A stretch of DNA of 64,000 nt from Dehalococcoidia bacterium (GTDB lineage Bacteria; Chloroflexota; Dehalococcoidia; Bin125): assembly GCA_965203995.1 (NCBI GenBank), contig OZ241962.1, positions 1,092,782-1,156,781 of the forward strand. The letters run 5' to 3'. Position numbers and translations under genes: made by a program. This document shows positions 1-55,228 of this stretch, piece after piece. The stretch's first letter is position 1. Each line of letters starts with the position of its first letter. The notes below the pieces were generated by a model. That model was not told the origin of the DNA and made no database searches. It worked only from the letters and a program-made list of their open reading frames with translations.

Positions 1-135
1 ACAGAGCTGGACGAAACTGGACGACGTTGGACGACATCGGACCCAGCCGGTCTCACTCCGGACTCCCATACCGAACTCGCTTGCCGAAGTCCTATATTGA
101 TCACGCCCGCACTCCCGATCGGAAAAGGAACTCCC

Positions 136-1845
136 ATGCACGATCTCGTCATCCGCAACGGCCTCGTCGTCGACGGCACCGGCGCGCCCGCCCGACGCGC
201 CGATCTCGCCATTGACGACGGCGTCGTCGCCGCCGTCGGCGAAGTCAACGACCTCGGCCGCGAGGAAATCGACGCCCACGGCCTGCTCGTCACCCCAGGC
301 TTCGTCGACATCCACACCCACTTCGACGGTCAGATCACCTGGGACCCGCTGCTCACCCCCTCCTTCTGGCACGGCGTCACCACCGTCGTCTTCGGCAACT
401 GCGGCGTCGGCTTCGCCCCCGCCGCGCCCAACCGCCGCGACTGGCTGATCGGCCTCATGGAGGGCGTCGAGGACATCCCCGGCTCCGCCCTCGCCGAGGG
501 CATCCAGTGGAACTGGGAGTCCTTCCCCGAGTACCTCGACTTCCTCGACACGCTGCCCAAGGCAATCGACATCGGCACGCAGGTGCCCCACGGCGCCGTC
601 CGCGCCTACGTCATGGGCGACCGCGGCGCGCGCAACGAGGACGCCAACCCCGAGGACATCCAGGAGATGGCCGCCATCGTCAAGGAAGGCCTGCAGGCCG
701 GCGCGCTCGGCTTCACCACCTCGCGCACCCTCGCCCACCGCGCCATCGACGGCGAGCCCGTGCCCGGCACCTTCGCCGCCGAGGACGAGCTGTTCGGCAT
801 CGGCCAGGCGCTCAAGGAGCTCGGCACCGGCATCTACGAGGTCGCTCCGGCCGGCGTGACCGGCGACGACGCCAACGCGCCGGAGCTCGAGATTGCCTGG
901 ATGCGCAAGCTGTCGGCCGAGATCGAGCGCCCGGTCAGCTTCGCCATGGTCCAGTTCGACAACGAGCCCGAGGCCTGGCGCGACGCCCTGGACCGCTCGC
1001 TCGAAGCGCTCGAAGACGGCGCGGAACTCTACCCGCAGGTCGCCGCCCGCGGCATCTCGCTGCTCCTCACCCTGCGCGGACGCCACCCCTTCATCCACTC
1101 GCCCAGCTACCGCGAGCTGGACGAACTCGACTGGGCCGGGCGGGCCGAAGCCATGCGCGACCCGCAGCGCCGCGAGAAGATCCTGGCCGAGGTCGAAGCA
1201 CCCGACGCCGCCCTCGGCTTCATCATGTGGCACAAGCTCTACCCCATGACCGAACCGCCCAACTACGAGCCGACCGCCGACGATTCCGTCGCCGCTCGCG
1301 CCGAGGCCGCCGGTCAGACCCCGCTCGAGTTCGCCTACGACTTCCTCAGCCGGGACGACGGCCAGAATGTGCTCTTCGCGCCGCTCTTCAACTACGCCCA
1401 CAACAACCTCGACGCGACCCGCGAGATGATGATGCACCCCCGCGTCGCCATGGGCCTCTCCGACGGCGGCGCACACTGCGGCGTGATCTGCGACGCGTCA
1501 ATGCCCACCTTCATGCTCACCCACTGGTCGCGCGACCGCAGCCGCGGCGACAAGCTGCCGCTCGAATGGGTCGTCAAGCGCATGACCAACGACACGGCCG
1601 AGCTCTACGGTCTCGGCGACCGCGGCACGCTCGAAGTCGGCAAGAAGGGCGACGTCAACCTGATCGACTACGACGCCCTCCAGCTCGAGCCGCCGCAAGC
1701 CGTCCACGACCTCCCCACCGAGGCCATGCGCCTGATCCAGAAATCGCGCGGCTACGTCGCCACCATCGTCAGCGGCGAAGTCATCTCCCGCCACGGCGAA
1801 GAAACCGGAGCCCGCCCCGGCCAACTCATCCGCGGCGCCCGCTAA
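136..1845 (+). CDS. N-acyl-D-amino-acid deacylase (D-aminoacylase) family amidohydrolase
   Basis: ORF 97..1845 (582 aa). Amidohydrolase metal-binding signature DIHTHFDG near the N-terminus. Start is probably MHDLVIRNGLVVDGTG at 136. GC3-rich codon usage typical of this genome. Confidence 0.75.
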   Translation: MHDLVIRNGLVVDGTGAPARRADLAIDDGVVAAVGEVNDLGREEIDAHGLLVTPGFVDIHTHFDGQITWDPLLTPSFWHGVTTVVFGNCGVGFAPAAPNRRDWLIGLMEGVEDIPGSALAEGIQWNWESFPEYLDFLDTLPKAIDIGTQVPHGAVRAYVMGDRGARNEDANPEDIQEMAAIVKEGLQAGALGFTTSRTLAHRAIDGEPVPGTFAAEDELFGIGQALKELGTGIYEVAPAGVTGDDANAPELEIAWMRKLSAEIERPVSFAMVQFDNEPEAWRDALDRSLEALEDGAELYPQVAARGISLLLTLRGRHPFIHSPSYRELDELDWAGRAEAMRDPQRREKILAEVEAPDAALGFIMWHKLYPMTEPPNYEPTADDSVAARAEAAGQTPLEFAYDFLSRDDGQNVLFAPLFNYAHNNLDATREMMMHPRVAMGLSDGGAHCGVICDASMPTFMLTHWSRDRSRGDKLPLEWVVKRMTNDTAELYGLGDRGTLEVGKKGDVNLIDYDALQLEPPQAVHDLPTEAMRLIQKSRGYVATIVSGEVISRHGEETGARPGQLIRGAR

Positions 1846-1854
1846 CCCACGAGC

Positions 1855-2075
1855 CCGGGAAGGCGGGGGGTGAGGGCCCTCCGATCCCCTCTCCCCGAGG
1901 GAGAGGGTTAGGGTGAGGGCCACCGCGCAGGCGGAGGGTATGGGCCTTCCGGTTCCCTCTCCCCGAGGGAGAGGGTTAGGGTGAGGGCCCTCCGTGGGCA
2001 GCGCGGACCCTCACCGCCCCGGGACCTTCACCCCGTCCCTCTCCCAGAGGGAGAGGGAGAAGAGTTCCCGAGTCG
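1855..2075. repeat. Intergenic array of about 2.5 copies of a ~70-bp unit containing the palindrome CCCTCTCCCCGAGGGAGAGGG and GGGTGAGGGCCCTCC
   Basis: Directly visible: ctctccccgagggagagggttagggtgagggcc occurs at ~1890 and ~1958, with a variant ccctctcccagagggagaggg at ~2037. Each unit can fold into GC hairpins. Confidence 0.8.
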
Positions 2076-2096
2076 CTCTTGCCTCATTAGCAGAAC

Positions 2097-2954
2097 ATGT
2101 GTACCTTAGTACGCATGTTGCAACTCTCCCTCTTCGACCCCAACCCCACACCCACCCGGCCCGCAACCCAGGGCAGCGCCGACGTCATCTACGCCGACGC
2201 CTCCGCCATCCTCGCCCGGCCCACCGGCCGGCTCGCCGACCTCGACTTCGTCATCAACCCCTACCAGGGCTGCACCTTCGCCTGCACCTACTGCTACGCC
2301 GCCTTCTTCGTCGCCGAGGAAGAGCAGCGCGAACGCTGGGGACAGTGGGTCCGCGTCAAGACCAACGCAATCGCCAAGCTGCGCAACTCCCGACACGACC
2401 TGCGCGGCCGCACCGTGCTGATGAGCAGCGCCACCGATCCCTATCAGCCGATCGAATCGAAGCTGGAGCTGACCCGCTCGCTCTTGCCCATCCTCGCCGA
2501 GCGCGGCGCGCACCTGGCCGTGCTCTCGCGCAGCCCGCTCGTCACCCGCGACATCGACCTGTTCAAGTCGTTCGACCACATCAACATTACGATCAGCATC
2601 ACCACCGACGACGACGCGATTCGCCGCCGCTTCGAGCCTCAGTGCGCCAGCATCGACCGCCGCTTCGAAGCGCTGCAGGAACTCGCCGAGGCAGGCTTGC
2701 GCACTCGGATCAACGTCGCCCCCCTGCTGCCCCTGCGCGATGTCGCCGGCTTCGCCCAGCGCATCCTCGACAGCGGCGTCTCCCGCGTCCACATCAACAC
2801 CTTCCACGAGTCAAGCGGCCCCTTCGCCTCCGGCACGCGCCCGCCCGCGCTCAAGATCGCCCGCGAACTGGGCTGGACCGAGGCACGCCGCGAGCATGTG
2901 CAGGAGGAGTTGCGCAACTATCTCAACCGCGAAGGTCGGCGTCTTGCCGCGTGA
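2097..2954 (+). CDS. Radical SAM protein, SplB/COG1533-like (DNA repair photolyase family)
   Basis: NPYQGCTFACTYCYAAFF gives a CxxxCxxC 4Fe-4S/SAM cluster motif. 285 aa. Alternative start MLQLSLF at 2115. Confidence 0.75.
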   Translation: MCTLVRMLQLSLFDPNPTPTRPATQGSADVIYADASAILARPTGRLADLDFVINPYQGCTFACTYCYAAFFVAEEEQRERWGQWVRVKTNAIAKLRNSRHDLRGRTVLMSSATDPYQPIESKLELTRSLLPILAERGAHLAVLSRSPLVTRDIDLFKSFDHINITISITTDDDAIRRRFEPQCASIDRRFEALQELAEAGLRTRINVAPLLPLRDVAGFAQRILDSGVSRVHINTFHESSGPFASGTRPPALKIARELGWTEARREHVQEELRNYLNREGRRLAA

Positions 2955-2958
2955 CCAG

Positions 2959-3186
2959 CTACAGGCTCGCGTAGACGGCGTCGATCATCGGCTTCCAGCG
3001 CGGATCCGCCCCGAGCCCGGCCGACATCTGGTTCATCACGTAGCCAAGCCCGATCCCGGCGTCAGGATCAGCAAAGCCCAGCGATCCGCCCGCTGAAAGG
3101 GAGGCAAAATCAGCACCAAGCGCACCCGGATCGCCAGGCCCATAGCTGCCCATTTCACTGGCAACTCCGCCTTCGTCGAGCAGCAA
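2959..3186 (-). pseudogene. Orphan 3'-terminal fragment of a beta-lactamase-like serine hydrolase gene (paralogous copy of the end of the 3599..4735 gene)
   Basis: About 135 bp (2958-3092) are ~93% identical to 3598-3732. The 75-aa frame ends ...GGSLGFADPDAGIGLGYVMNQMSAGLGADPRWKPMIDAVYASL like the intact gene but has no N-terminal catalytic part. Confidence 0.7.
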
Positions 3187-3348
3187 TCAGCCTGCTTCCA
3201 ATGTGCCAAACGGCTTGGGTGAATGGCTAAAGCAATAGTCTGACTGCCAGGCCAAGTCTACGGAGCGGCGAATGGATGTGCCGCCGCTCACCACTCTCGA
3301 CTGGCATTTGGCCACCAACTAACTTGGCTGACAGCTACCAACGACTGA

Positions 3349-3546
3349 CTAAGTACGATTGCGGCGCCTGTACCACACTATTGCTAGCGCAAGCGCAGCA
3401 GGTATCACCGCTGTGGTCCACGTCACGCTGAACGGTTCATTCTGAATTCCTAGATCGATCACAGCCCTAGTTGCAAACGTGACGGCATACATCAGGACAA
3501 GCGCCCAAAAGACCTCACTCACGATTAAGCGACTGATGAATCGCAC
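3349..3546 (-). CDS. Hypothetical small two-TM membrane protein inside a low-GC insert (coding status doubtful)
   Basis: 65-aa ORF with GTG start and two hydrophobic segments (VFWALVLMYAVTF, TAVIPAALALAIVW). Codon usage is AT-rich (tta, agt, ttt, aat), unlike all neighbouring genes. No clear SD. Confidence 0.25.
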   Translation of the reverse strand: MRFISRLIVSEVFWALVLMYAVTFATRAVIDLGIQNEPFSVTWTTAVIPAALALAIVWYRRRNRT

Positions 3547-3598
3547 GATTACTATGTTCGACTTCCCGTTCTCAGTTTGTTTGACGATACAGAGCTTG

Positions 3599-4735
3599 CT
3601 ACAGGCTCGCGTAAACGGCGTCGATCATCGGCTTCCAGCGCGGATCCGCCCCGAGCCCGGCCGACATCTGGTTCATCACATAGCCGAATCCGATCCCGGC
3701 GTCGGGATCGGCAAAGCCCAGCGAGCCCCCAGCTCCCGAATGTCCAAACGTCCGCGGATTCGGACCCCACTCGTAGCGCCCCCCGGCGGTGCTCAGGATG
3801 AAGCCCAGCGATCGCCGCACGAGGAATCCCAGCACCATGTCCTCCCGAGCCGCGTGCTCGGTCGCCCCGCAAGCCTCGACGGCGTCGCGCGAGCACAGCT
3901 CGCCGCCGCCCTGCGCGAGCGCCGAGTAGATCGTCGCCAGCGAGCGTCCGTTGCCGTGGCCGTTGGCCGCCGGCAACTCCGCCGCCCGCCACTCGCGCGA
4001 GTTGACCGTCCCAGCCAGCCGTGGCGCAGCCAGCCCCAGCGCCCGCGCCGCCAGGTTGTCTTCGCTGCTGACGCCGATTGGACCCGCGCCCGGCGCGGCA
4101 ATCAGGTCGGCGGTTCGCGCGTCTTCCGACTCCGGCAAGCCGATGAAGAAGTCAATACCGAGCGGTTGGGCGATCTCGTTGCGCACGAATTCGCCGCAGC
4201 TACGCCCGTCGATCCGGCGAATCACTTCGCCCACCAGCCAACCGTAGGTGATCGCGTGATAGCCCATGCCCTCGCCCGGCGTCCACATCGGCGCCTGACG
4301 CTCGAGCGCGCCGATCATCCGCTCCCAGTCGAGTACCGCGCCGTCCGGCAGCTCCTCGTCGACGCCGGCCAGACCCGCCTCGTGCGTCAGCAGGTGACGC
4401 ACCGTGATCTCCGACTTGCCCGCCTGCCCGAACTCGGGCCAGTAATCGACCACCGGCCGCTCGACATCGAGCTGCCCCCGGTCGACCAGCATCGCCGCGG
4501 CGGCCGCCGCAATGCCCTTGGTCGACGAATACACGTTGGTGATCGTGTCCGGCTCCCAGGCGCGCGCACGCGCTTCGTCGGCGAACCCGCCCCACAGATC
4601 GACCACGACCTCACCGCCCACGATCACGCAGAGCGACGCGCCGACCTCGTCGTGCTCGGTCCAGTTGGCGGCAAACGCGTCGCGAACCGCGCCGAAGCGC
4701 GGCTCGCAGGCGCCGTGCAGCTCGACGGTGCTCAT
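3599..4735 (-). CDS. Beta-lactamase-family serine hydrolase / esterase (class C-like, SxxK)
   Basis: SSTKG (S-x-x-K) active-site motif. 378 aa. YxN-like downstream elements. Confidence 0.75.
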   Translation of the reverse strand: MSTVELHGACEPRFGAVRDAFAANWTEHDEVGASLCVIVGGEVVVDLWGGFADEARARAWEPDTITNVYSSTKGIAAAAAAMLVDRGQLDVERPVVDYWPEFGQAGKSEITVRHLLTHEAGLAGVDEELPDGAVLDWERMIGALERQAPMWTPGEGMGYHAITYGWLVGEVIRRIDGRSCGEFVRNEIAQPLGIDFFIGLPESEDARTADLIAAPGAGPIGVSSEDNLAARALGLAAPRLAGTVNSREWRAAELPAANGHGNGRSLATIYSALAQGGGELCSRDAVEACGATEHAAREDMVLGFLVRRSLGFILSTAGGRYEWGPNPRTFGHSGAGGSLGFADPDAGIGFGYVMNQMSAGLGADPRWKPMIDAVYASL

Positions 4736-4738
4736 CGG

Positions 4739-5911
4739 TTAGTCCGCGGAGACGGGCTCGGCGACCGCCCGGCCGGAGAGCTCCTCGGGCATCGAACCTT
4801 CCAGTTCGTGGATCGCCGGCAGCACCTCGGACGCGAACAGGCGCATGCTGCGCTCGGCGGTCTCCGCCGGCACGCCGCCCGAGATTCGGAAGTTCATGAT
4901 CATCTCTTCCGCCGCCGTCATCTGCTGGATGTGCTTGAGCTTCTCGATCACCTGGTCCGGCGTGCCCCAGGCCTGCGGCGTCGCCGCGTACTGCGCCCGC
5001 TGCTCCGGCGTCGTCCGCGCGTTGGTCTTGCCGAACTCGGCGTAGTACTTGTAGCCCTTGGTCTGCTCAAAGCGCGCCGACTCGCTGAACAGGTAGTGAC
5101 GCTCGACGCTCTCCTGGAACTCTCCCGTGCCCTGCAGCATCACGTCCCAGGCCTCTGCCTCCGTGTCGAAGCAGGCGACGTTGGCGACCACGGTTGGCTG
5201 CCGCGGCTCCCAGCCGTTGCCGACCCGAATCTCGTTGAATCGGCGCACATCGGCCTGGTACTCGTCCCACTTCTTCGAGTTGGTGAACAGCATCCCCAGC
5301 CCGGCGTTGGCCGCAATCTCCAGCGTCTCGGGAGAGATCCAGGCGACCCGCATCGAGTCGAGCAACTGCTGCGGATTGCGCGGCCGCGGCCGGATCGTCG
5401 TCTCCGGAATCGTGTAGAAGTCGCCCTCGTGCGAGAAGTACTCCTGCGTCAAACCCTTGCGCACCACCTCGAGCGACTCCATGAAGCGGTCGCGCGACTC
5501 GCCCATCGGCGAGCGGAACGCTTCGAACTCGCGCTTGGCCGCGCCCCGGCCGAGGCCGAGTGTCAGCTTGCGGCCCTGCAGCATGTTGTCCAGCACCGTG
5601 ATCTGCTCGGTGATCGCCACCGGGTCGTACCACGGCAGCACGATCACCATTGTGCCGAAGTCGATCCGCTCGGTCTTCCCGGCGAAGTAGGTCAGGTTCT
5701 GCAATGCGCCCGAAGTCATGATGTAGGGCGAGAAGTGGTGGTCGATGCACCAGTAGGAGTCGAAGCCCAGCGGCTCAACCAGGCCGCCCAGGTGCAGGTC
5801 TTCCTCGTAGACCTGCTGATCGCTGACCGGCATCTCTTCGGCGACCGCATGCGCCTCGAATCGATCCCAATCGGTGTAGTTCTGGAAGTTGAAGTGAACG
5901 CCGACCTTCAT
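4739..5911 (-). CDS. LLM-class (luciferase-like) flavin/F420-dependent oxidoreductase
   Basis: N-terminus MKVGVHFNF is typical of the LLM TIM-barrel family. 390 aa. 4-bp gap to the upstream-strand neighbour. Confidence 0.7.
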   Translation of the reverse strand: MKVGVHFNFQNYTDWDRFEAHAVAEEMPVSDQQVYEEDLHLGGLVEPLGFDSYWCIDHHFSPYIMTSGALQNLTYFAGKTERIDFGTMVIVLPWYDPVAITEQITVLDNMLQGRKLTLGLGRGAAKREFEAFRSPMGESRDRFMESLEVVRKGLTQEYFSHEGDFYTIPETTIRPRPRNPQQLLDSMRVAWISPETLEIAANAGLGMLFTNSKKWDEYQADVRRFNEIRVGNGWEPRQPTVVANVACFDTEAEAWDVMLQGTGEFQESVERHYLFSESARFEQTKGYKYYAEFGKTNARTTPEQRAQYAATPQAWGTPDQVIEKLKHIQQMTAAEEMIMNFRISGGVPAETAERSMRLFASEVLPAIHELEGSMPEELSGRAVAEPVSAD

Positions 5912-5973
5912 GCGAGTTGCCTCATCTCTGGATGGGGAGTTGACGGTCTAACCAGCGCAGGATACGGCAACTC

Positions 5974-5994
5974 CGCCCCCCCTTGCAGGGGGAG
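5974..5994 (-). terminator. GC hairpin (C7-TTGCA-G5) between trxA and the LLM gene; weak candidate terminator/attenuator
   Basis: ccccccc ttgca ggggg at 5976-5992. No U-tract follows on the transcribed strand. Confidence 0.2.
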
Positions 5995-6040
5995 CTGCCG
6001 CATGCTGAGGGGGTCCAGCCGGCGGAGAAAGCGGGTGACG

Positions 6041-6367
6041 TTAGGTCAGGACCTCGTCGAGGCGCTTGGCGAGGTCGCTCTTGGGACGGAAGCCGACGAT
6101 CTGGCCGGCCACTTCGCCGCCCTTGAACACCAGCAGCGTGGGGATGCTGCGAATCCCGTACTCGGTCGCAATGCCCGGGTTCTCGTCGGTGTTGAGCTTG
6201 TAGAAGGCGACCCGGCCGTCGTACTCGTCCGAGAGCTCGTCCACGATCGGGGCCACCATGCGGCAGGGACCGCACCAGGGCGCCCAGAAGTCGACCAGCA
6301 CCGGCAGGTCGTTGTCCTTCACGTCGGCCTGGAAGCTCGCGTCGGTCACTTCCTGGGGCTTTGCCAT
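6041..6367 (-). CDS. trxA: Thioredoxin
   Basis: WAPWCGPCR active site. 108 aa. Confidence 0.95.
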   Translation of the reverse strand: MAKPQEVTDASFQADVKDNDLPVLVDFWAPWCGPCRMVAPIVDELSDEYDGRVAFYKLNTDENPGIATEYGIRSIPTLLVFKGGEVAGQIVGFRPKSDLAKRLDEVLT

Positions 6368-6448
6368 CTGACTCCTCCAAGCGGTCTGTGTTCAATCAGT
6401 CTCTCACCCGTCAAATGTAACGCATCGGCGGGCGCTCCCGACCTGCGA

Positions 6449-7552
6449 TCAGCGCCGTTCGTAGCGCCAAGTGTCGCTCACCTCACCGTCCGAGCGCGCA
6501 GGCTCGGACCACTCCGACTCGTCCTCGACCGGAGCCGTCCCGGCCACCGCGTCGCGGATCGCCTGCACCACGCCCGATTGCACCACGCTGCGCGCCGATC
6601 GGATCCCGCTGGTCACGGCCTCGGCGTTGGCCCGCCCGTGTCCGACCAGCACCGCGCCGTCGATCCCGAACAGCGGGGCAGACCCGACCTTGGCGTAGTC
6701 CCAGTGCGAGCGCAGGCTGCGGAACGCGCCGCGCATCAGCCAGGCACCGGCCATGTGCAGCATGTTCGCCTGAATGCTGCGCCGCAGCTCGCCGAAGAGC
6801 TGCTCGGCCACGCCCTCGGTCAGCTTGACCGCCACGTTGCCCGTGAATCCGTCCGAGACGATCACGTCGGCCGCGCCGGCGACCATCCGGTTCGCCTCGA
6901 TGTTGCCCACGAAGTTCTGTTCCTGCCGCGCCAGGAGCTGGTACGCCTCCTGGTGCAGATTGGTGCCCTTGAGCTCTTCCTCGCCCACGTTGAGCAGGCC
7001 CACGCTGGGATTGCGGTGGCGCAGCACGCGCTCCACGTAGGCGCGGCCCATCGTCGCGAACTGGCAGAGATACTGCGGCCGCGCCTCGACATTGGCGCCC
7101 ACATCCAGCAAGAGCGAGGTCGTGCCGCGCCCGTTGCGGAAGAGCGCTCCCAGGGCGGGACGCGCGACCCCGGGAATCCGGCCCAGCGTGAACAGCGAGC
7201 TGGCCATCACCGCGCCGGTGTTGCCGAACGAGAGAAACGCGTCCGCGTCGCCGTCGGCGAGCAGGCCGAGCCCGACCATGATCGAGGAGTCCGGCATTCG
7301 CCGCACCGCCGTCGGCGGCGCGTCCATCGAGATCGCTTCCGAGGCCTCCTGGATCCGCAGGTTGCGCTGGGCGGCGGGCATCAGACTGCGAATCTCGCGG
7401 CCCCGCCCGACCAGGATGATGTCGACGTCGAGTTCGTGCGCCGCGCTGAGCGCGCCCTTGACGACCGCAGCCGGCGCCTGATCGCCGCCCATCGCATCAA
7501 GCGCAACGGTGATCGGCCGCTGCCCCTGCCCGCTCTCGATCCTCCGCTGCAT
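6449..7552 (-). CDS. plsX: Phosphate acyltransferase PlsX
   Basis: ITVALDAMGGDQAP... matches the PlsX N-terminus. ORF extends to 7609. Start chosen at MQRRIESG (7552). Confidence 0.85.
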   Translation of the reverse strand: MQRRIESGQGQRPITVALDAMGGDQAPAAVVKGALSAAHELDVDIILVGRGREIRSLMPAAQRNLRIQEASEAISMDAPPTAVRRMPDSSIMVGLGLLADGDADAFLSFGNTGAVMASSLFTLGRIPGVARPALGALFRNGRGTTSLLLDVGANVEARPQYLCQFATMGRAYVERVLRHRNPSVGLLNVGEEELKGTNLHQEAYQLLARQEQNFVGNIEANRMVAGAADVIVSDGFTGNVAVKLTEGVAEQLFGELRRSIQANMLHMAGAWLMRGAFRSLRSHWDYAKVGSAPLFGIDGAVLVGHGRANAEAVTSGIRSARSVVQSGVVQAIRDAVAGTAPVEDESEWSEPARSDGEVSDTWRYERR

Positions 7553-7592
7553 GTCACCCCCAGGCGTCCAATGGCCTTCTCGACTGGAGAGT

Positions 7593-8843
7593 CTATTCGT
7601 CCGCCGCATCGCCCGCAGCGCTGCAACGGAAACTTGAAATCAACGGTAGTGCAACCGACTCGGGGTCCTCCGGATCGAGCACGTGCAGGACGAACTCCCG
7701 CCCGCTGTCGTTGCAGTACCAGGCGTACGACTGGATCATCATCACGCCTTCGCCAAACGGCGTCTCGGTCTCGCCGGTCCGCGCCGCGCGCCCGTCGACC
7801 ACACCGGCGTCGCGGAACCCGCTCACGTTCTCGATACCGAGGGAGTCCCGCAGCGACTGGGTGATCGCGGTGTCGCCGTCATAGAACGCTTCGCCCAGGA
7901 TCTGCCAGGTCAGCACGGCCTTGAGCGCCGTCGTGGTCTGCAGGACCAGGATGCCGGCCTGTTCGTTCGGCGGATTGTCGGTTGGCTGACCGAACTCCTG
8001 CGCAAAGTCGGCCGTGTCGTAGTCGAGCACGAAATCGAAGCGCTCGTAGCGACCCGGACGGGCGGCAATCTCGCGGGGCAGGAAGAACGAGTCAATCGCC
8101 CGTTCCAGCGCATCCGCGACCGAGTCGTAGTCGTCGAGCACCGCCCCGGCGCGAAGCACGATCGCCAGATCGTTCGCCCGCACCAGCACCGCGTGCCAGC
8201 GCACCTGGAAGCCTCCCGTCGCGCGGCGATCCTCTTCCCAGTCGAATCGTTGCGCTTCGTCCCCGGTGACCGTCACCGTCTGTTCAATCGAGGCGAACTC
8301 GACGCTCTCGAGGTCGAGCCGCGACCTGACGAACCCTTCGGCGTCGGAATCGTCGTCAACGTAGACATCCACGCCAATCAACGCCCGACCCGTCTCGGAG
8401 CCGAAGCTGACGCGATCGATGCCGTTCGACGTCGGCGAGCAGAAGGGCGAACAGATCAACTCCAGCGAGTAGCCATAGGTCGGACTCGTGTAGCGGCGGA
8501 TAATGTCCTCCGCCGTCTGCAGGGTGCTGTCGTCTGCTTCGTCATCCTGCTGCGCATCTGCGGGCTGCTCCTCTTGCGACGGCGCCGTCTGCTGCTCCTG
8601 GCCCGCTGCCTGCTGCGGTTCATCCGCCGGCGCGGACTCGGCATCCTGCTCGGGTTGCGAGGACTGGGCGTCGCCGTCGTCGCCCTCGGTGTCTGCGGCG
8701 CTGGCTTGGTCCTCGGCCGACGGCGCCGACGGACGGAAGAATTCGTTCGATTGCACGTGCTCATTCGGGTTCTCGGCACAGGCCAGGACGCCGGCGGCGA
8801 GCAGCAGCAACAGCGCAGCCAGGAGCGTGGTCGGTCGGATCAT
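7593..8843 (-). CDS. Secreted lipoprotein with a long acidic/Q-rich disordered linker and a C-terminal globular domain (hypothetical)
   Basis: Signal peptide MIRPTTLLAALLLLLAAGVLAC (lipobox-like VLAC), then about 100 aa rich in E/Q/D/A. ORF extends to 8900. Confidence 0.55.
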   Translation of the reverse strand: MIRPTTLLAALLLLLAAGVLACAENPNEHVQSNEFFRPSAPSAEDQASAADTEGDDGDAQSSQPEQDAESAPADEPQQAAGQEQQTAPSQEEQPADAQQDDEADDSTLQTAEDIIRRYTSPTYGYSLELICSPFCSPTSNGIDRVSFGSETGRALIGVDVYVDDDSDAEGFVRSRLDLESVEFASIEQTVTVTGDEAQRFDWEEDRRATGGFQVRWHAVLVRANDLAIVLRAGAVLDDYDSVADALERAIDSFFLPREIAARPGRYERFDFVLDYDTADFAQEFGQPTDNPPNEQAGILVLQTTTALKAVLTWQILGEAFYDGDTAITQSLRDSLGIENVSGFRDAGVVDGRAARTGETETPFGEGVMMIQSYAWYCNDSGREFVLHVLDPEDPESVALPLISSFRCSAAGDAADE

Positions 8844-9651
8844 GCCGCCTCCGCCGACACGATCAGGCGGTCGCCCTCGCCGGGTTCGTCGAACTGCCAC
8901 GAGCCGAACCAGTCCACCGCCCGCAACCCCGCTTCGTGCAGCAGACCCGACATCTCGCCCGCCGACAGATTCACCCGCAAGGGGAAGCGCGCCAACGAGC
9001 GCTCGACCGAACCGGAGTCGTCGACCGCGTCGTACTGATACGTGATCCAGGCAATCGGCGAGGCGCGGTCGATCGCGCTGCCGCAGGATCGATCAAGCGC
9101 CAGCTCCTGCGCGGCGTGCTTGGTCACCCACTCTTCCGCGTCCGTGCGCCGCATCCACTCGAACTGCATCGGACCGGGAGCCGGATCCAGGTCGTCCGGG
9201 CGCGGCGCGGTCCAGTCAATCAGCAACCGGCCTCCGGCGGCGAGATGCGTCCTCGCGCCGCCCAGGACGGCGAGCTGATCCTCGCGCCGCAGCAGGTGCT
9301 GGAAGGTCGACAGACCGATCAGGACCAGGTCGTAGCGCGCCTCGAGGCTCAGGCAGCGCATGTCGCCGCGCCTGGGATCGACGCCGGCCTCGCGCATCCG
9401 CGGCTCGCCCAGCGCGAGCATCGCCGGCGATGAATCCACGGCCGTCACGCGGTGACCCGACGCGGCCAACGGCGACGCGATCCGGCCGCTCCCGGCGCCC
9501 AGTTCCAGCACTCGCTCGCGGCCGGAAGCCAACTCCAAGATCATCTCCAGATCGTCGGTCAGCGGGCCGAAATCAAGGTCGTACCAGCGGGAAATCGTGC
9601 GCAGCGCGCGCTCCTGGTCGGCTGACGACCAGCGCAGAGGATCGTCCAACG
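8840..9651 (-). CDS. Class I SAM-dependent methyltransferase
   Basis: Motif I VLELGAGSGRIA, and DSSPAMLAL post-I. The track ORF runs to 10315 but overlaps apt. TTG at 9651 preceded by GGAGG is the likely start. Its stop abuts the lipoprotein start. Confidence 0.65.
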
Positions 9652-9680
9652 TTGGCCTCCGCTCGCCCGCGACACCACTC

Positions 9681-9740
9681 CTGGTCAGCCTACCAGTGAT
9701 ACCCGGCCCCGCACGCGGGGCCCGTACCAGGTCAGTTGGT
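9681..9740. promoter_or_regulatory. Extended imperfect palindrome in the divergent MTase/apt intergenic region (candidate operator)
   Basis: Core perfect inverted repeat GGCCCCGC-AC-GCGGGGCC at 9705-9722, flanked by TACCAGTGATACC / GGTACCAGGTCAG arms. Confidence 0.35.
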
Positions 9741-9751
9741 ACGCTGACGAC

Positions 9752-10282
9752 ATGACCGATACGCCGACCCTCAGCGACCTCGTCGCGCAGTACATCCGCG
9801 CGATTCCCGACTTCCCCGAGCCGGGCATCCTCTTCCGCGACATCACCCCGTTGCTGGCCGAACCGACCGCATTCGCCCGCGCCCTGGACTGGCTGGCCGA
9901 GTCCTGCGAGGGCGCGGACGCCGTGGTCGGGATCGAGTCTCGAGGCTTCATCCTCGGCGCGCCGGTAGCCCAGCGGCTCAACCTGCCCTTCATCCCGATC
10001 CGCAAGGCGGGCAAGCTGCCTGCCGAGAAAATCGCCCGTTCCTACGATCTCGAGTACGGCTCGGCCACGATCGAGATGCACGCCGATGCGTTGTCGCTCG
10101 GTCACCGCGTCGCAGTGGTCGACGACTTGCTCGCCACCGGCGGGACCGCCGAGGCGGCCGTTCAGCTCATCCTCCAGTCCGGCGCCGCGGTCGAGCAGGT
10201 CGCCTTCCTGATCGAACTGGAGGCGCTCAACGGCCGCGACCGGCTGCGGCCACACACCGTCGATTCGATGCTGATCTACTAA
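9752..10282 (+). CDS. apt: Adenine phosphoribosyltransferase
   Basis: EPGILFRDITPLL and VVDDLLATGGTAEAA PRPP-binding motif. 176 aa. Confidence 0.95.
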   Translation: MTDTPTLSDLVAQYIRAIPDFPEPGILFRDITPLLAEPTAFARALDWLAESCEGADAVVGIESRGFILGAPVAQRLNLPFIPIRKAGKLPAEKIARSYDLEYGSATIEMHADALSLGHRVAVVDDLLATGGTAEAAVQLILQSGAAVEQVAFLIELEALNGRDRLRPHTVDSMLIY

Positions 10283-10304
10283 CCCGACCAGCGAAGCGTC
10301 AGAG

Positions 10305-11192
10305 GTGCCGCGCATGACCAGCGATCCACCGACCGTCCAGCTCGCCGTGATCGGCGGCTCCGGCTTCTACCAGATGCCGGGACTCAGCGATGTCCGCCGC
10401 TGGAGCACAGACACACCGTTCGGACCGCCCTCGGACGAGCTCGTGATCGGCGATCTGCACGGCAGGTCCGTCGCCTTTCTGCCTCGGCACGGCGTCGGAC
10501 ACCGGCTGATGCCGCACGAGATTCCCGTGCGAGCCAACATTTGGGCGCTCAAGTCGCTCGGCGTGCAGGGCATCCTGGCCGTCTCCGCCGTCGGCTCATT
10601 GAAGCAGGACATCGTCCCGGGACACATGGTCGTGCCCGATCAGATCATCGACCGTACCCGCGGCCTCCGGCCGACCACCTTCTTCGGCGACGGCCTCGTC
10701 GTCCATGTCGGGTTCGCCGATCCGTTCTGCGCCGACCTCAGCGCCCGGCTGATCGAGAGCGCCGGACGCGTCGGCCAGACGGTCCACTCCGGCGGCGCAT
10801 ACATCGCGATGGAGGGCCCGCTGTTCAGCACCCGCGCCGAGTCGCACCTCTATCGCTCCTGGGGCGCATCGATCATCGGCATGACCGCCGTGCCCGAAGC
10901 CAAGCTCGCCCGCGAGGCCGAGATCGCCTACGCAATGCTCGCCACAGCCACCGACTACGACGTCTGGCACGAGTCGGAAGCCGACGTCACCGCCGCCGCC
11001 GTCGCGCAGATCGTCGCCCAGAACGTGCAATCCGCGCAGCGCATCATCGCCGACCTCGCCCGGCATCTGCCTGAGGGCTGGACCTCGACGGCCGAGGGCG
11101 CGCTCGAGGGCGCGATCATGACCGACCCTCGACGCATTCCCGACGCCGCCCGAGCACGGTACGAGCTGCTGATCGCAGGCCGGCTGCCGTGA
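10305..11192 (+). CDS. mtnP: S-methyl-5'-thioadenosine phosphorylase (MTAP/PNP family)
   Basis: AVIGGSGFY ... GMTAVPEAKLAREAEIAYA is typical of MTAP. 295 aa. Confidence 0.85.
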   Translation: MPRMTSDPPTVQLAVIGGSGFYQMPGLSDVRRWSTDTPFGPPSDELVIGDLHGRSVAFLPRHGVGHRLMPHEIPVRANIWALKSLGVQGILAVSAVGSLKQDIVPGHMVVPDQIIDRTRGLRPTTFFGDGLVVHVGFADPFCADLSARLIESAGRVGQTVHSGGAYIAMEGPLFSTRAESHLYRSWGASIIGMTAVPEAKLAREAEIAYAMLATATDYDVWHESEADVTAAAVAQIVAQNVQSAQRIIADLARHLPEGWTSTAEGALEGAIMTDPRRIPDAARARYELLIAGRLP

Positions 11193-12136
11193 ACGCGGCC
11201 GAGATCGACCTGGCCGTCGTCGGCGCGATCGCCCTCGACGAAATCCACAGCCAGGCCGGCGACATCGACCAGATGCTCGGGGGCTCGGCGATCTACTCCT
11301 GCCTGGCCGCCTCGCTGCTGGCAACCAGCGCGCCCGTCTCGGTGATCGGCAGCGACCTCGACCGCGGACTGCTGCAGCCGCTGCACGACCGCGGCGTGCG
11401 CATGGACAGCGTGATCGAGGCCGACGGCCCCAACTTCCGCTGGGGCTGCCGCTATTCGTCCACGGGCGACGTCCGCGAGACGCTGTACACCCGCGCCGGC
11501 GTCTACGACACCGTGCCGGTCGTCGTCGCGCCGGCGCTGCAATGCGCTCGCCTGCTGCTGTTGACCGCCGGCAATCCCGACCAGAACCGCCGCGCGCTTG
11601 AGCAGATGAGCGAGCCCGACCTGGTCGCGATCGACACGATCGAGCGCGAAGTGGCCGAGCGCCGCGACGAGTTCCGCGATCAGTTGCGCCGCGCGGATCT
11701 GGTCTCGATCAACACCCTCGAAGCCGCCCACCTGATCCAGTGGCCCGGCAGCGACGACGATCCGGCGCTCCCCGAGGCCGCCTGGAACGAGATCCGCCGC
11801 ATGGGACCGCGCATCTTCGTGCTCAAGAAGGCTTCCCAGGGAGTCGAGGTGTTCCAGGATGACCGACGCACCCTCGTCGGAGCGGTACCCGATATCGACG
11901 CCGTCGACCCGACCGGTGCGGGCGATTCGTTCGCCGGCGCGCTGCTCAGTTGCCTGGCTCGCGGCCAGGACCTGATCGAAGCCACGGTCTGGGGCTGTGC
12001 GGTCGCCTCCTTCGCGATCGAGCGCTTCGGCACCGAAGGCTTGCTCCGGGCCGCGCCGGACGCGGTCCGCTCGCGCGCTGCGAGGATCACCGTCCAGGAG
12101 CAGGTCGAACACACGCCAAACAGAGGCAGCGGTTAA
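11189..12136 (+). CDS. PfkB-family carbohydrate/nucleoside kinase (possibly adenosine kinase)
   Basis: DPTGAGDSFAGALL ribokinase-family ATP motif. GTG start overlaps the mtnP stop (GTGA). Confidence 0.7.
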   Translation: MNAAEIDLAVVGAIALDEIHSQAGDIDQMLGGSAIYSCLAASLLATSAPVSVIGSDLDRGLLQPLHDRGVRMDSVIEADGPNFRWGCRYSSTGDVRETLYTRAGVYDTVPVVVAPALQCARLLLLTAGNPDQNRRALEQMSEPDLVAIDTIEREVAERRDEFRDQLRRADLVSINTLEAAHLIQWPGSDDDPALPEAAWNEIRRMGPRIFVLKKASQGVEVFQDDRRTLVGAVPDIDAVDPTGAGDSFAGALLSCLARGQDLIEATVWGCAVASFAIERFGTEGLLRAAPDAVRSRAARITVQEQVEHTPNRGSG

Positions 12137-12145
12137 CGTTCCCAC

Positions 12146-15515
<3,370 letters not shown>

Positions 15516-15562
15516 CCCGACCGCCGACGCCGTCGTATCTGAAGCAGCGCTCCGGCCGCCGC

Positions 15563-15964
15563 CTAGCGCTTTGTGTACTGCGGCGCCTTGCGAGCCCGCT
15601 TGAGACCGGGCTTCTTGCGCTCCTTGGCCCGCGGATCTCGGGTCAGCATGCCTGCCTGTCGCAGCGGCCGGCGCAGCGTCTCATCGCTGGCCAGCAGCGC
15701 CCGAGCGATGCCCAGTCGAATCGCGCCGGCCCAGCCGTTCATCCCGCCGCCGCTGCAACGCACCATGGCCGAGAAGCTGTTCTGCATGCCCGTATGGCGC
15801 AACGGCTCCTCAATCAAACGGCGCTGCTCCGGGCGGCGGAAGAGTTCATCGGCCGGCTTCCCGTTGACCGTGATCTGTCCGTTGCCCGGGTAGAGCCGGA
15901 CCCGTGCGATCGCCGTCTTGCGCCGTCCCAGTCCGTAGTAGTAGTTGCCCGCTGCGGTGGTCAT
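15563..15964 (-). CDS. rpsI: 30S ribosomal protein S9
   Basis: GRRKTAIARVRLYPGNG ... KAPQYTKR. Confidence 0.95.
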   Translation of the reverse strand: MTTAAGNYYYGLGRRKTAIARVRLYPGNGQITVNGKPADELFRRPEQRRLIEEPLRHTGMQNSFSAMVRCSGGGMNGWAGAIRLGIARALLASDETLRRPLRQAGMLTRDPRAKERKKPGLKRARKAPQYTKR

Positions 15965-15967
15965 CGG

Positions 15968-16396
15968 TTACTCCGCTCCCTGTTCGGCCATCTGGCCGGC
16001 GTGCGGGTGATCGGGGCCCGCGTAGACCCGCAGGTGCCGGTACTGCGTGCGGCCCAGCGAATTCTTGGGCAGCATGCCGCGCACGGCGTGCTCGATCACG
16101 CGCTCCGGACGCTTGGCCAGCATCTCCTTCAGCGAAGTCTCTTTCAAGCCGCCCAGGTAACCCGAGTGCCGGTAGTAGATCTTCTGCTCAAGCTTCTTGC
16201 CGGTTACCGCGACCTTGCCCGCGTTGACGACGACCACGTAGTCGCCGACATCCTGGGAAGGATGAAACACCGGCTTGTGTTTGCCGCGCAGTAGCGTGGC
16301 CACCTGCGTCGCGACGCGTCCCAGCGGCCGATCGGCCGCGTCGATCACGTGCCATTGCCGTGGGACCTGATGTCGTCCCAGTACGGTCGTCGTCAT
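15968..16396 (-). CDS. rplM: 50S ribosomal protein L13
   Basis: [28 protein letters not shown]. Confidence 0.95.
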
Positions 16397-50990: not shown

Positions 50991-51666
50991 CCTCGCCGAG
51001 TCCTGCGGGACGCGACAGGTCGAACTCAGCGACCTGCCTCAGCCGCTCACCGCACGGCAGGTCATGGACGCCTTCATCGGTCGCTTTCCGCATGTCGGTC
51101 CGATGCGAGACTCGATCATGTTCGCCGTCAATGCCGAGTACGTCTCGCCTGACCATCCTGTCTGCCTGGCCGACGAAGTCGCCCTGATCCCGCCGGTCAG
51201 TGGCGGGGCAACAGACGACCCATTCTTCAAAATCACTCGAGCCGAGCTCGATCCCAGCGAGTTACACGGCCTCGTGCTCTCCAATCAGGCCGGAGCGGTC
51301 TCACTCTTCCTCGGCGTCGTGCGTAACAACAACCTGGGCCGTGAGGTCGATTACCTCGAGTACGACGCTTACCCGGCTATGGCCACGAAGGTCATGCGCC
51401 AGATTGCCGGTGAGATTCGCCAGCGTTGGGACGTGCTCGAGATAGCCATGCACCACCGCATTGGACGCCTCGAGATCGGCGAAGCCTCCGTCGCTGTAGC
51501 CGTCGCCTCGGCCCACCGCTCCGAGGGCATCGAGGCCTGCCATTACGGGATCGACCGGCTCAAGGCCATCGTCCCGATCTGGAAGAAAGAAGTCTGGGCG
51601 GACGGCGAAGAGTGGATCGAAGGCTCGCTCACCCCCGCCGCGGAGATCGACGCCGCTTCTGATTGA
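50962..51666 (+). CDS. Molybdopterin synthase MoaD-MoaE fusion protein
   Basis: ThiS/MoaD-like N-domain ending ...EVALIPPVSGG. MoaE-like C-domain HRIGRLEIGEASVAVAVASAHRSEGIEACHYGIDRLKAIVPIWKKE. Confidence 0.8.
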   Translation: MSLTVQLFANLAESCGTRQVELSDLPQPLTARQVMDAFIGRFPHVGPMRDSIMFAVNAEYVSPDHPVCLADEVALIPPVSGGATDDPFFKITRAELDPSELHGLVLSNQAGAVSLFLGVVRNNNLGREVDYLEYDAYPAMATKVMRQIAGEIRQRWDVLEIAMHHRIGRLEIGEASVAVAVASAHRSEGIEACHYGIDRLKAIVPIWKKEVWADGEEWIEGSLTPAAEIDAASD

Positions 51667-53026
51667 TCACCATCGCCGGCTGATCGGTCCGATAGTCCTT
51701 CGCCTTGACGTACTGCACAGTGCCCCGCTGACTATCCAGCAAGCGCGACGCCAGCCTTGGGTCCAAACTCTCAGGCGCCACGTTTGTCGTGATCAACGTT
51801 GGCGCTCGACGCAGGTATCGCGAAGCGCAGAGCTGGTACAGCTTCTCGCTCGCCCACTCCGTTGACTGGTGAGCCCCCAAGTCGTCCAGCACGAGCAGAT
51901 CGACATCCTTGAGCCAGGCGAAGATCGCCTCGAACGACGCCTCCCCTTCGTCGCGATACGAAGCGCGCAGCGCATCCAGCAGCTCCGGTACCACGGCGAA
52001 GCAGACGCGGTCGCCGGCGGCAAGCCGGTCGTTCGCCGCAGCCGCCGCCAGGTGCGTTTTACCCACGCCGGTGCCGCCGATCAAGGTCATCCAGCCCGCC
52101 GGCTGCTCTGCCCAGGCCACCACTAGCGACTTCGCACCAGGCAGATTCTCCGCGTCGCCACGGCCGCCTAGCCCCTGCTCGCGGAAGTTGTCGAACGTGT
52201 ACTGGGCAAGCACCAACTCCGACATCCCGCCGTACTCCCGATAACGCGCTCCCGGCGACGACTCAGCCAGCTCCAGTCGCGCGACGTCGAGCGTCAGGAA
52301 TGATTGCAAGCCGATCGCCGACAGGTCGGCCGTCTCCGCCACCAACACTGTCCGGCGACCGGTGTTGCGCCGGTGGTTGAGCAACTGGAACAGCTTCTCG
52401 CGAGCCCAGTCGGTGGGCGAGATGCAATCCAGGTCGTCCAGGATCAGGAACGGCGCGTCGCGCACGTGCTCGAACAGCAAAGCGAACGAGAAGTCGCCCC
52501 CGCTTGATGCGTTCATCGCCGCACGCAGCCGATCCAGCAGATCGGCGGTGACGAAGTACAGCGCCGCCCGTCCTTCCGCGATCCGTCGATTCGCCATCTC
52601 CGCCGACAACCGCGTTCGTCCCGATCCCGCGGCCCCAGTCAACACCAGCCAGCCCGGTTCCTCGTCGGGCGCGTCGGCGAAGGCGCAGGCCGCCGCCGCA
52701 GACTCGCTTGACGTATCTGCAGCGTCCAAGCGCGCGTCCGAAAGCGGACCGAGATTGCTCAGACGCTGCAGGCGTGCCGCCTCCCTCGCTTCCTGTTCCA
52801 GACGCCGGCACTCGCAGGGCTGCACGCGACCGAACTCTGGATCGCCGACCGGCCGTGATACGCGCACATAGCCCGCTCCGCCACAGATGTCGCAGTCAGC
52901 AGAGCCGTCACGCGTCCAGAGGGAGTCGTCGCGCTCCAGCTCCTCTTCAGTCTCGGAAGAGGTGCCGGTAGCGCGACGACTCCAGTCCGCCAGCAGCGGT
53001 CCCAGCCGTTGCATCTCCGCCATCGC
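51629..53026 (-). CDS. Tandem AAA+ DnaC/DnaI(IstB)-like helicase loader with N-terminal Cys-rich module
   Basis: N-terminus CDICGGAGYV...QPCEC. Domain 1: LVLTGAAGSGRTRL (Walker A K->R) and FLILDDLD. Domain 2: YTFDNF...LIGGTGVGKTHLAAAAA and LLVLDDLG. Track ORF to 53239. Start chosen at 53026 (M72) or 53014 (M75), overlapping the dnaD-like gene by ~70-80 nt. Confidence 0.7.
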   Translation of the reverse strand, partial: AMAEMQRLGPLLADWSRRATGTSSETEEELERDDSLWTRDGSADCDICGGAGYVRVSRPVGDPEFGRVQPCECRRLEQEAREAARLQRLSNLGPLSDARLDAADTSSESAAAACAFADAPDEEPGWLVLTGAAGSGRTRLSAEMANRRIAEGRAALYFVTADLLDRLRAAMNASSGGDFSFALLFEHVRDAPFLILDDLDCISPTDWAREKLFQLLNHRRNTGRRTVLVAETADLSAIGLQSFLTLDVARLELAESSPGARYREYGGMSELVLAQYTFDNFREQGLGGRGDAENLPGAKSLVVAWAEQPAGWMTLIGGTGVGKTHLAAAAANDRLAAGDRVCFAVVPELLDALRASYRDEGEASFEAIFAWLKDVDLLVLDDLGAHQSTEWASEKLYQLCASRYLRRAPTLITTNVAPESLDPRLASRLLDSQRGTVQYVKAKDYRTDQPAMVINQKRRRSPRRG

Positions 53027-53636
53027 GTCCCTCCGTCTCCCAGCGCTCGAGGATGGCCCGCGCATAACGCCAGCTGTGCGCATTGTTGGCCGCGGCTTCG
53101 ACGAAGGCGTCATGCAGCCAATCGGTGCCGTAACGCGCCTCTGCCGCCTTGAGCTCCTCCGCCAGAATCGGCGGCATTGGTGTCCCAAACGCACTCTGCC
53201 AGATCTCGGGCGCCGTGCCGTAAACCGCCTCCCGCCCATGTACCCGAGCAGAGTCGGGAGGCATTGGAGCCGACGCCATCGCCCTGCGGCCGTCCGCGTC
53301 GTTCAACGCCAGCCACTCAACCCATCGGCCTGCCGACTGCGCTCGACCAATCAACAACGACCCACGCCGGATCGCGGCTGATAGTCCCTGCTCGAACGCC
53401 TCGTTGACCTCCCGATCCACGCACATGCCGGCAAGCGCCTCAATCAGCGGCCGCTCTTCTCGCAAACCGGCCGTCGACACCCGCCTCGGAAACCGGCGTT
53501 GTCGACCAATCGCCTCAACAGCGAACAGCGTCACAATCAGCTCCGCAGGGTCACTCATCGCAGGCGCCAGGTCCCGTAACAGCGCCTGCGGCAGCGGCGT
53601 CACCGGAGCGCCCGAGGGAAATCCGTCGAAATCCAT
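52947..53636 (-). CDS. DnaD-domain replication initiation/helicase-loading accessory protein (DnaD/DnaB2-like)
   Basis: C-terminal DnaD-type motif LAEELKAAEARYGTDWLHDAFVEAAANNAHSWRYARAILERW. ATG overlaps the dnaB stop (ATGA). Confidence 0.6.
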   Translation of the reverse strand: MDFDGFPSGAPVTPLPQALLRDLAPAMSDPAELIVTLFAVEAIGRQRRFPRRVSTAGLREERPLIEALAGMCVDREVNEAFEQGLSAAIRRGSLLIGRAQSAGRWVEWLALNDADGRRAMASAPMPPDSARVHGREAVYGTAPEIWQSAFGTPMPPILAEELKAAEARYGTDWLHDAFVEAAANNAHSWRYARAILERWETEGRDGGDATAGTAAGGLESSRYRHLFRD

Positions 53637-55123: not shown

Positions 55124-55228
55124 CAACGGCCTCCCCACGATCAACATCCCGTGAGAACCCGGACACACAACTGGCGGACGGCCAGCGAATCGGAATCTGT
55201 CTCAGGACTGCAGGACAGAAACGCGCGC

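Follow-up and report, generated by a model that had tools for sequence, protein, structure and literature searches.

The duplicated gene end and its surroundings

This analysis concerns a short insertion beside a serine hydrolase gene in a 64-kb stretch of contig OZ241962.1 (assembly GCA_965203995.1) from a Dehalococcoidia bacterium; the whole stretch is called the window below, and positions are those of the window unless another locus is named. The hydrolase gene is intact and lies on the minus strand at 3599 to 4735. It encodes a 378-aa protein of the beta-lactamase/CubicO family (Pfam Beta-lactamase PF00144, E = 4e-72), with orthologs that share 72 to 98% amino acid identity and a conserved synteny. 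Downstream of it come 503 bp of DNA without a detectable homolog (3095 to 3597), then a second, detached copy of the hydrolase 3' end, and then a convergent radical SAM gene on the plus strand (2097 to 2954), the stop codon of which lies 4 nt from that of the detached copy. The explanation that we favor, with moderate confidence, is that this arrangement is a recombination scar: a circular DNA on which a diverged version of the gene end was present would have been inserted by a single crossover (Campbell-type insertion).

The duplication of the hydrolase 3' end, which an earlier reading made from the letters of the DNA alone (referred to here as the sequence-only reading) had put at 135 nt, is real and measures 137 nt. 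The two copies, at 2958 to 3094 and 3598 to 3734, form a direct repeat that aligns without gaps at 127 of 137 positions (92.7% identity; BLAST E = 2e-55), and on the minus strand either copy begins 1 base beyond the TAG stop codon. The copy at 3598 to 3734 (minus strand) is the end of the intact gene and would correspond to the left attachment site (attL) of an integrated element; it matches two related loci, L081 and L082, over 3690 to 3734 and is followed by the insert. The attR-like copy at 2958 to 3094 (minus strand) is mosaic and forms the end of an orphan open reading frame (ORF) of 75 aa (2959 to 3186, minus strand), which was deposited as protein P0126 in the annotation of the source genome. 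Hydrolase similarity covers only the last 46 to 51 residues of this ORF (tblastn, hydrolase amino acids 330 to 378; family hidden Markov model [HMM], positions 327 to 377). The first ~25 codons, which are unrelated, result from read-through into the insert.

Of the 10 bases at which the copies differ, 9 occupy third codon positions, which gives eight synonymous codons and one Leu/Phe exchange. The copies therefore diverged within working genes and not by decay after an internal duplication. At 3094/3095, where the orphan gene end joins the insert, homology stops abruptly within a run of codons and at no special feature. The window contains no paralog of the hydrolase, and the paralogs found in related metagenome-assembled genomes (MAGs) are only ~49% identical, which argues against an intact second hydrolase as the source of the orphan. 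A search with the 75-aa orphan protein matched only itself as an orphan. Two short matches, P0128 and P0130, were considered as further orphans and rejected, as they are frameshift-split hydrolase genes. In L085 and L086 (7052 to 8237), the orthologous hydrolase is called as two overlapping genes of 320 and 78 aa; this looks like a frameshift or a sequencing error, with no orphan copy.

The insert as a whole has a GC content of 53.7%, the window a mean of 66.1%, and it is the sole place in the 64 kb where the GC content of a 300-bp segment dips below 57%. Its composition is graded, from 60% GC at 3095 to 3186 to 41% at 3547 to 3597. The segment at 3187 to 3597 that had been singled out as low in GC is indeed so (52.3%); the assumed background of 68% was too high, and the inserted DNA extends over the full 503 bp. 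Apart from such minor figures, the sequence-only description of the locus is correct. A putative coding ORF of 65 aa (3349 to 3546, minus strand, GTG start) lies on the hydrolase strand, 52 nt past the hydrolase stop codon. Its product has two hydrophobic segments and an RRRNRT tail, and the GC content at its third codon positions (GC3) is 0.57, versus 0.87 in the hydrolase, in agreement with the two-membrane-segment, AT-codon-biased peptide of the sequence-only reading. The insert has three small ORFs (65, 43, and 75 aa), each of them in the frame with the fewest stops (three).

Homology searches with the insert and with the 65-aa peptide revealed no origin in an element in the collections searched. 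The insert DNA had no blastn match in 80 related loci and no match in phage or plasmid collections, and viral contigs contained none of three exact 23- to 24-mers taken from it. Translated in six frames and scanned against PHROGs and Pfam, the insert gave nothing credible and no recombinase gene or pseudogene remnant, and the hydrolase-family HMM detected nothing in the insert region beyond the last 51 residues of the orphan. The 65-aa peptide had no match in 5.8 billion protein clusters by a word-indexed search. Matches to it from an exhaustive HMMER search of 1.84 billion representatives were rejected as spurious, being long repetitive proteins whose scores were summed over repeats, and no true homolog was found among ~15 billion proteins. 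Its back-translated sequence found nothing in metagenome or viral contigs, and it matched neither Pfam nor PADLOC. With no homolog or family for the peptide and no Rfam or RNA structure signal in the insert, the earlier suggestion of a toxin-like cargo is without support. An exact-sequence look-up found the hydrolase, the 65-aa peptide, and protein P0001 absent from records.

Other identities for the insert were tried and set aside. An RNA gene was rejected, there being no tRNA, no match to Rfam at a threshold as loose as E = 1, and folding z-scores close to zero (−0.1 and +0.2). A scan for promoters and terminators returned nothing above chance. A miniature inverted-repeat transposable element or an insertion sequence was likewise rejected: the insert is without terminal inverted repeats, the duplication is 137 bp long, and the insert is present in a single copy in the window and in none of the related loci.

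The same site in related genomes

The order of genes around the hydrolase (luciferase-like monooxygenase, hydrolase, convergent radical SAM, amidohydrolase) is kept in ~36 species-level relatives. In ~30 of the 36, the convergent stop codons are 4 to 30 bp apart, an arrangement that we call empty; in the other 6, ~800 to 850 bp lie between them. The closest hydrolases are two at 98% identity in the protein search, and the contig flanks are 94 to 97% identical to the window. L081 has an empty site, in which the hydrolase stop, 4 nt, and the radical SAM stop follow one another, and the junction between the orphan and the radical SAM gene in the window (TAG CTGG TCA on the hydrolase strand) is identical to it. 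Positions 1 to 7138 of L081 align to 10735 to 3598 of the window and positions 7002 to 8020 to 3094 to 2076, such that 7002 to 7138 aligns twice. The window is L081 plus exactly 640 bp, with no base lost. The geometry proposed from the letters alone, a gene 3' end and its displaced copy bracketing foreign DNA, is borne out by this empty site and exact gain, as well as by a signature like that of the prophage e14 (see below). Among the genomes and proteins searched, no relative shares the duplicated end together with the insert.

L082 and L083 carry a two-gene cassette at the same site, without a repeat. The encoded proteins are 113 aa (function unknown) and 151 aa (retropepsin-like) long. Such cassettes were observed in seven related genomes at eight loci: L082 (7165 to 7958) and L083 (2180 to 2973), which have the same allele, L019 (11154 to 11959), and L028, L005, L015, L035, and L040 (each ~11138 to 11970). 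Their products are a 113- to 116-aa protein without a family and a ~151-aa protein with a DTGS motif and weak matches to retroviral aspartyl proteases (RVP, E = 0.003). The 151-aa proteins are 39 to 74% identical to that of L082, and the flanking genes are 80 to 95% identical. The cassettes have a GC content ~5 points under that of the genome and gave no PADLOC matches. At 7100 to 7137 of L082, 5 of the 48 hydrolase differences from L081 fall in the last 26 nt before the stop codon, which suggests that recombination with a breakpoint inside this gene end exchanges cassette and empty alleles.

The start of the insert (3541 to 3597, minus strand) has a counterpart in the L082 cassette. Positions 3597 to 3579 match the cassette leader (L082, 7139 to 7157) at 15 of 19 positions, and positions 3573 to 3541 match 7177 to 7208, which are codons 5 to 15 of the first cassette gene, at 24 of 33 positions with one gap (shuffle p ~0.01). 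Judged by these alignments, the first ~57 nt of the insert is a putative diverged remnant of the leader and first codons of an L082-type cassette. Since the insert start resembles this cassette, the incoming gene end would derive from a cassette-type allele of this site on a related chromosome, and the flank is at least as indicative of related-chromosome DNA and ordinary recombination as it is of an integrase. No integrase-bearing element was found at this site in ~40 orthologous loci.

Two further arrangements were observed downstream of this gene family. In the more distant L036 (11222 to 14637), two paralogs, 492 and 582 aa long, are encoded in tandem after the hydrolase gene, and a 56-nt second copy of the hydrolase 3' end (12820 to 12875) lies between them; this is a tandem duplication that copied the gene end too. 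In L087 (1465 to 2240), a Joint Genome Institute metagenome contig, a frameshift-split hydrolase homolog with 62% identity is followed by a MazE-antitoxin/PIN-toxin pair, which is another small accessory module directly downstream of this gene family.

Mosaic repeats and the origin of the insertion

The differences between the repeat copies were polarized with L081, L082, and 35 further orthologs. Departures of the orphan from the species cluster are confined to 3091, 3088, 3085, 3070, 3064, and 3048, all within 3048 to 3094; its states at the first five of these are third-position states that differ from those of all three close strains and are present in more distant orthologs. From 3047 through the stop codon and into the radical SAM gene, it is identical to L081 for 105 nt. 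Within the repeat, it differs from L081 at 7 of the first 47 nt, with one of these differences private to L081, and at none of the 90 nt that follow (Fisher p = 4e-4); elsewhere, the three close strains are ~3% apart and related in a star-like manner. The orphan thus combines foreign sequence in its 5' part with native, L081-identical sequence in its 3' part. Conversely, the intact copy is the same as L081 and L082 down to 3690, has states of its own at 3689, 3686, 3680, and 3614, and then runs into DNA that is not that of L081.

The switch of ancestry lies between repeat positions 31 and 48, which correspond to 3687 to 3703 in the intact copy. Overlapping this interval is a perfect 9-4-9 palindrome, CCGATCCCG-GCGT-CGGGATCGG, at 3690 to 3711, the only one with arms of at least 9 bp in the 1,137-nt hydrolase gene. 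Palindromes with such arms occur at 0.16 per kb across the window, and when the repeat was shuffled, 0.8% of the resulting sequences contained one; the equivalent of this one in the orphan (3050 to 3071) has two mismatches in one arm. Homologous recombination gives the same hybrid-repeat pattern as a site-specific exchange at the core, and a three-strain test of informative sites in the flanks was star-like on both sides and uninformative for the breakpoint.

A single reciprocal crossover accounts for the clean gain of DNA, the orphan junction in the exact form of the empty site, the hybrid orphan, the synonymous divergence, and the intact gene. The ancestral chromosome would have had the empty arrangement seen in L081, and one reciprocal crossover within the last 137 bp of the hydrolase gene would have added the 640 bp. 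Its partner would have been a circular DNA on which ~500 bp of lower-GC DNA followed a separate, ~7% diverged version of the gene end. The hydrolase would thereby have stayed full length, with its last ~30 codons taken from the incoming DNA and all changes there synonymous, and the original gene end would have been displaced to the side of the radical SAM gene as the orphan, of which the first ~31 to 47 nt would come from the incoming DNA. The exchange itself would have taken place at 3687 to 3703 of the intact copy, overlapping the 22-bp palindrome. The insert, without demonstrable function today, would be an inert scar.

Several observations weigh against this explanation. Phage, plasmid, viral, and metagenome collections yielded neither a circular or free form of the insert nor a relative of it, and no second copy is present in the window or in related loci. 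Metagenome and viral contigs did not contain GCTGATCCTGACGCNGGNATCGGNYTYGG, the donor allele as reconstructed over the crossover. In line with the sequence-only reading, which saw no integrase, no recombinase was found in the insert, and no integrase or transposase domain was found among the 37 likely window genes scanned with Pfam (97 to 15964 and 38145 to 63979). The half of the mosaic pattern that comes from the intact copy is not significant alone (4 differences in 92 nt, versus 3.5% gene-wide), and one extra point mutation has to be assumed, at 3689 or at 3048, because these two positions interleave. The sequence, furthermore, is that of a metagenome-assembled genome.

The duplication, the empty site, the mosaic, and the lack of a recombinase gene among the scanned genes are observed; the circularity of the partner and the enzyme that acted are inferred. 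RecA or an integrase could have carried out the crossover, and RecA-type homologous recombination is our tentative suggestion. Experimentally, single crossovers between the chromosome and circles carrying part of a gene end gave duplications of 109 to 950 bp (PMC3240628). In that Escherichia coli lacZ system, as here, a duplicated gene end flanks inserted DNA without the involvement of a site-specific recombinase; the lacZ partner was a laboratory plasmid with 100% homology, whereas the homology here is 93% and the circle is one that we propose.

That a site-specific recombinase, supplied in trans or since deleted, made the crossover seems unlikely to us, though the palindrome at the switch interval and the geometry would suit one. 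The closest parallel is the icd/e14/icdC region of E. coli K-12, which we measured on NC_000913: it has a 165-bp direct repeat with 92.7% identity, in which 11 of 12 differences are third-position changes and identity ends at the stop codon. The window resembles e14 (and phage 21) in that the insertion is in the 3' end of a protein gene, the incoming end keeps the gene intact, and the original end is displaced (icdC in e14). It differs in that e14 is 15.2 kb long with an integrase, an excisionase, and phage genes, whereas the insert here has 503 bp and no recombinase or recognizable gene, and in that its flank is like a chromosomal cassette and unlike phage DNA. The differences in e14 also extend over the full length of the repeat, which fits a crossover at the 5' edge of the repeat, whereas the switch in the window falls in midrepeat and leaves 31 to 47 nt of additional homology upstream, which would be needless for restoring the gene. 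No recombinase gene or remnant was detected in the insert and no recombinase domain in the scanned genes, and the ~40 orthologous loci carry no integrase-bearing element at the site. Together with the lack of relatives of the insert and its cassette-like flank, these findings leave the site-specific integrative element of the sequence-only reading without support.

The alternative that survives best, which we nevertheless judge improbable, is that two alleles of this variable site underwent homology-facilitated illegitimate recombination. A linear DNA with one homologous anchor, either in the hydrolase gene or in the radical SAM and amidohydrolase genes, would have been joined illegitimately at 3094/3095, such that a cassette-type allele was placed beside an empty-type allele starting 137 nt before the stop codon; the orphan would then have a single parent, and the crossover would not lie within the repeat. 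PMC3240628 documents the mechanism in several bacteria and describes it, in naturally competent ones, as combining a homologous anchor with one nonhomologous joint. The abrupt end of homology at 3094/3095 would fit such a joint, the locus does combine the left part of one allele type (cassette) with the right part of the other (empty), and the scanned part of the window has no recombinase. However, the parent of the orphan must in this case already have been mosaic, 13 to 15% diverged from the cluster over 47 nt and then identical to L081 over 105 nt, and an exact gain of 640 bp without loss of a host base would be a coincidence. The mechanism usually produces a deletion or replacement at the illegitimate end and predicts neither a hybrid orphan nor a loss-free gain; most duplications of this sort in the E. 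coli work cited above arose from single crossovers with circles and were not genuine illegitimate events (PMC3240628).

We give still less weight to an assembly artifact, in which strains with a cassette variant and with an empty site would have been stitched in tandem in a long-read metagenome assembly, with a false doubling of the 137 nt that they share. The source is a MAG with a 3.1-Mb contig, alternative alleles of precisely this site are present in close relatives, and the arrangement is unique among the genomes and proteins searched. Against this, the 3094/3095 joint shows no sequence similarity from which a false overlap could arise, the copies differ at 10 positions and so do not represent an identical repeat that was collapsed or expanded, and the 5' part of the orphan is far more diverged than strain-level variation. 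The presence of P0126 in the deposited annotation shows only that the deposited assembly has the same sequence.

The insertion could also be a mini integrative element without an integrase, ~640 bp in length and still mobile, with its attachment (att) core at the palindrome, the 65-aa membrane peptide as cargo, and movement in trans by a recombinase encoded elsewhere in the genome. It would be comparable to a cis-mobilizable element (CIME), a recognized class of decayed elements that PMC5704250 defines by retained att sites and lost integration and transfer genes. The locus works like a CIME in having repeats and no such genes, with no sign that its repeats are att sites of a recombinase. We consider this a very doubtful origin for the locus. 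The att-like hybrid repeats, the position of the switch interval on the palindrome, and the intact two-helix ORF on the hydrolase strand, in the insert frame with the fewest stops, speak for it. No second copy is present in the window and no relative in the collections searched, however, the peptide is without a homolog, the insert begins with what appears to be a chromosomal cassette remnant, and the scanned part of the window has no integrase. CIMEs, moreover, descend from known integrative and conjugative or integrative mobilizable elements and have att sites used by a cognate integrase, whereas no parent element, integrase, or related att site was found here, and they are described in Firmicutes and not in Chloroflexota. 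We give very little credence to the corresponding stronger claim, that the 640-bp unit is a live miniature element of sponge-type Chloroflexota that recombines at the 22-bp palindrome, restores the gene, is mobilized in trans, and carries the two-helix peptide.

An internal duplication or a decayed paralog, with the orphan as what is left of a tandem duplication or of a second hydrolase gene decayed in place and the low-GC DNA as the decayed rest, is highly improbable: the shared frame of the three small ORFs, with its three stops, and the 56 nt of this gene end copied by tandem duplication in L036 are in its favor, but the family HMM sees nothing hydrolase-like past the last 51 residues, a tandem duplication of gene end plus insert cannot yield a junction identical to the empty allele, and the differences are synonymous and match natural alleles, unlike neutral decay.

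Genomic context and biological meaning

The insertion lies in a housekeeping region. Pfam matches in the window include thioredoxin, PlsX, S-adenosylmethionine synthetase, S-adenosylhomocysteine hydrolase, ribosomal proteins S9 and L9, SSB, DnaB, DnaE, and others. The block at 15968 to 37871, between the two scanned parts, looks by its gene sizes like ribosomal-protein and elongation-factor operons. The window contains no tRNA and no Rfam family. The only match in it that resembles a protein of mobile elements is in the region at 51629 to 55168, where a gene for a 536-aa protein with IstB/DnaA-like AAA domains adjoins DnaB; this protein is probably a helicase loader rather than an IS21 helper.

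The spacer between the amidohydrolase and radical SAM genes contains repeats of another kind. At 1855 to 2057, two tandem 67-nt units with 88% identity and an inverted partial copy surround the palindrome CCCTCTCCCCGAGGGAGAGGG. A 33-mer of these repeats recurs in L008 and in the equivalent spacer of L011, and the spacer of the window does not align with that of L081 or L082. They look like the repetitive extragenic palindromic (REP)-like intergenic repeats of the clade. The relatives mark the source of the window as a MAG of the Chloroflexota (Dehalococcoidia), and the isolate names of several related MAGs seem to resemble those of marine-sponge symbiont bins.

The scar is of a known kind and represents a new instance of it, in a lineage where such events are little documented; it opens no new mechanism and makes no outstanding question testable. 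For annotation it is a reminder that displaced gene ends, such as the 75-aa P0126, are deposited as proteins. It also provides a worked example in which a tiny strain-specific insertion in the genome of an uncultured symbiont can be traced to a single recombination event, which is possible because of the sister strain with an empty site and the codon-position pattern of the repeat differences. The junction between the hydrolase and radical SAM genes emerges as a small variable site within a conserved housekeeping region, one that is empty in most genomes, holds a cassette in some, and holds this insert in one.

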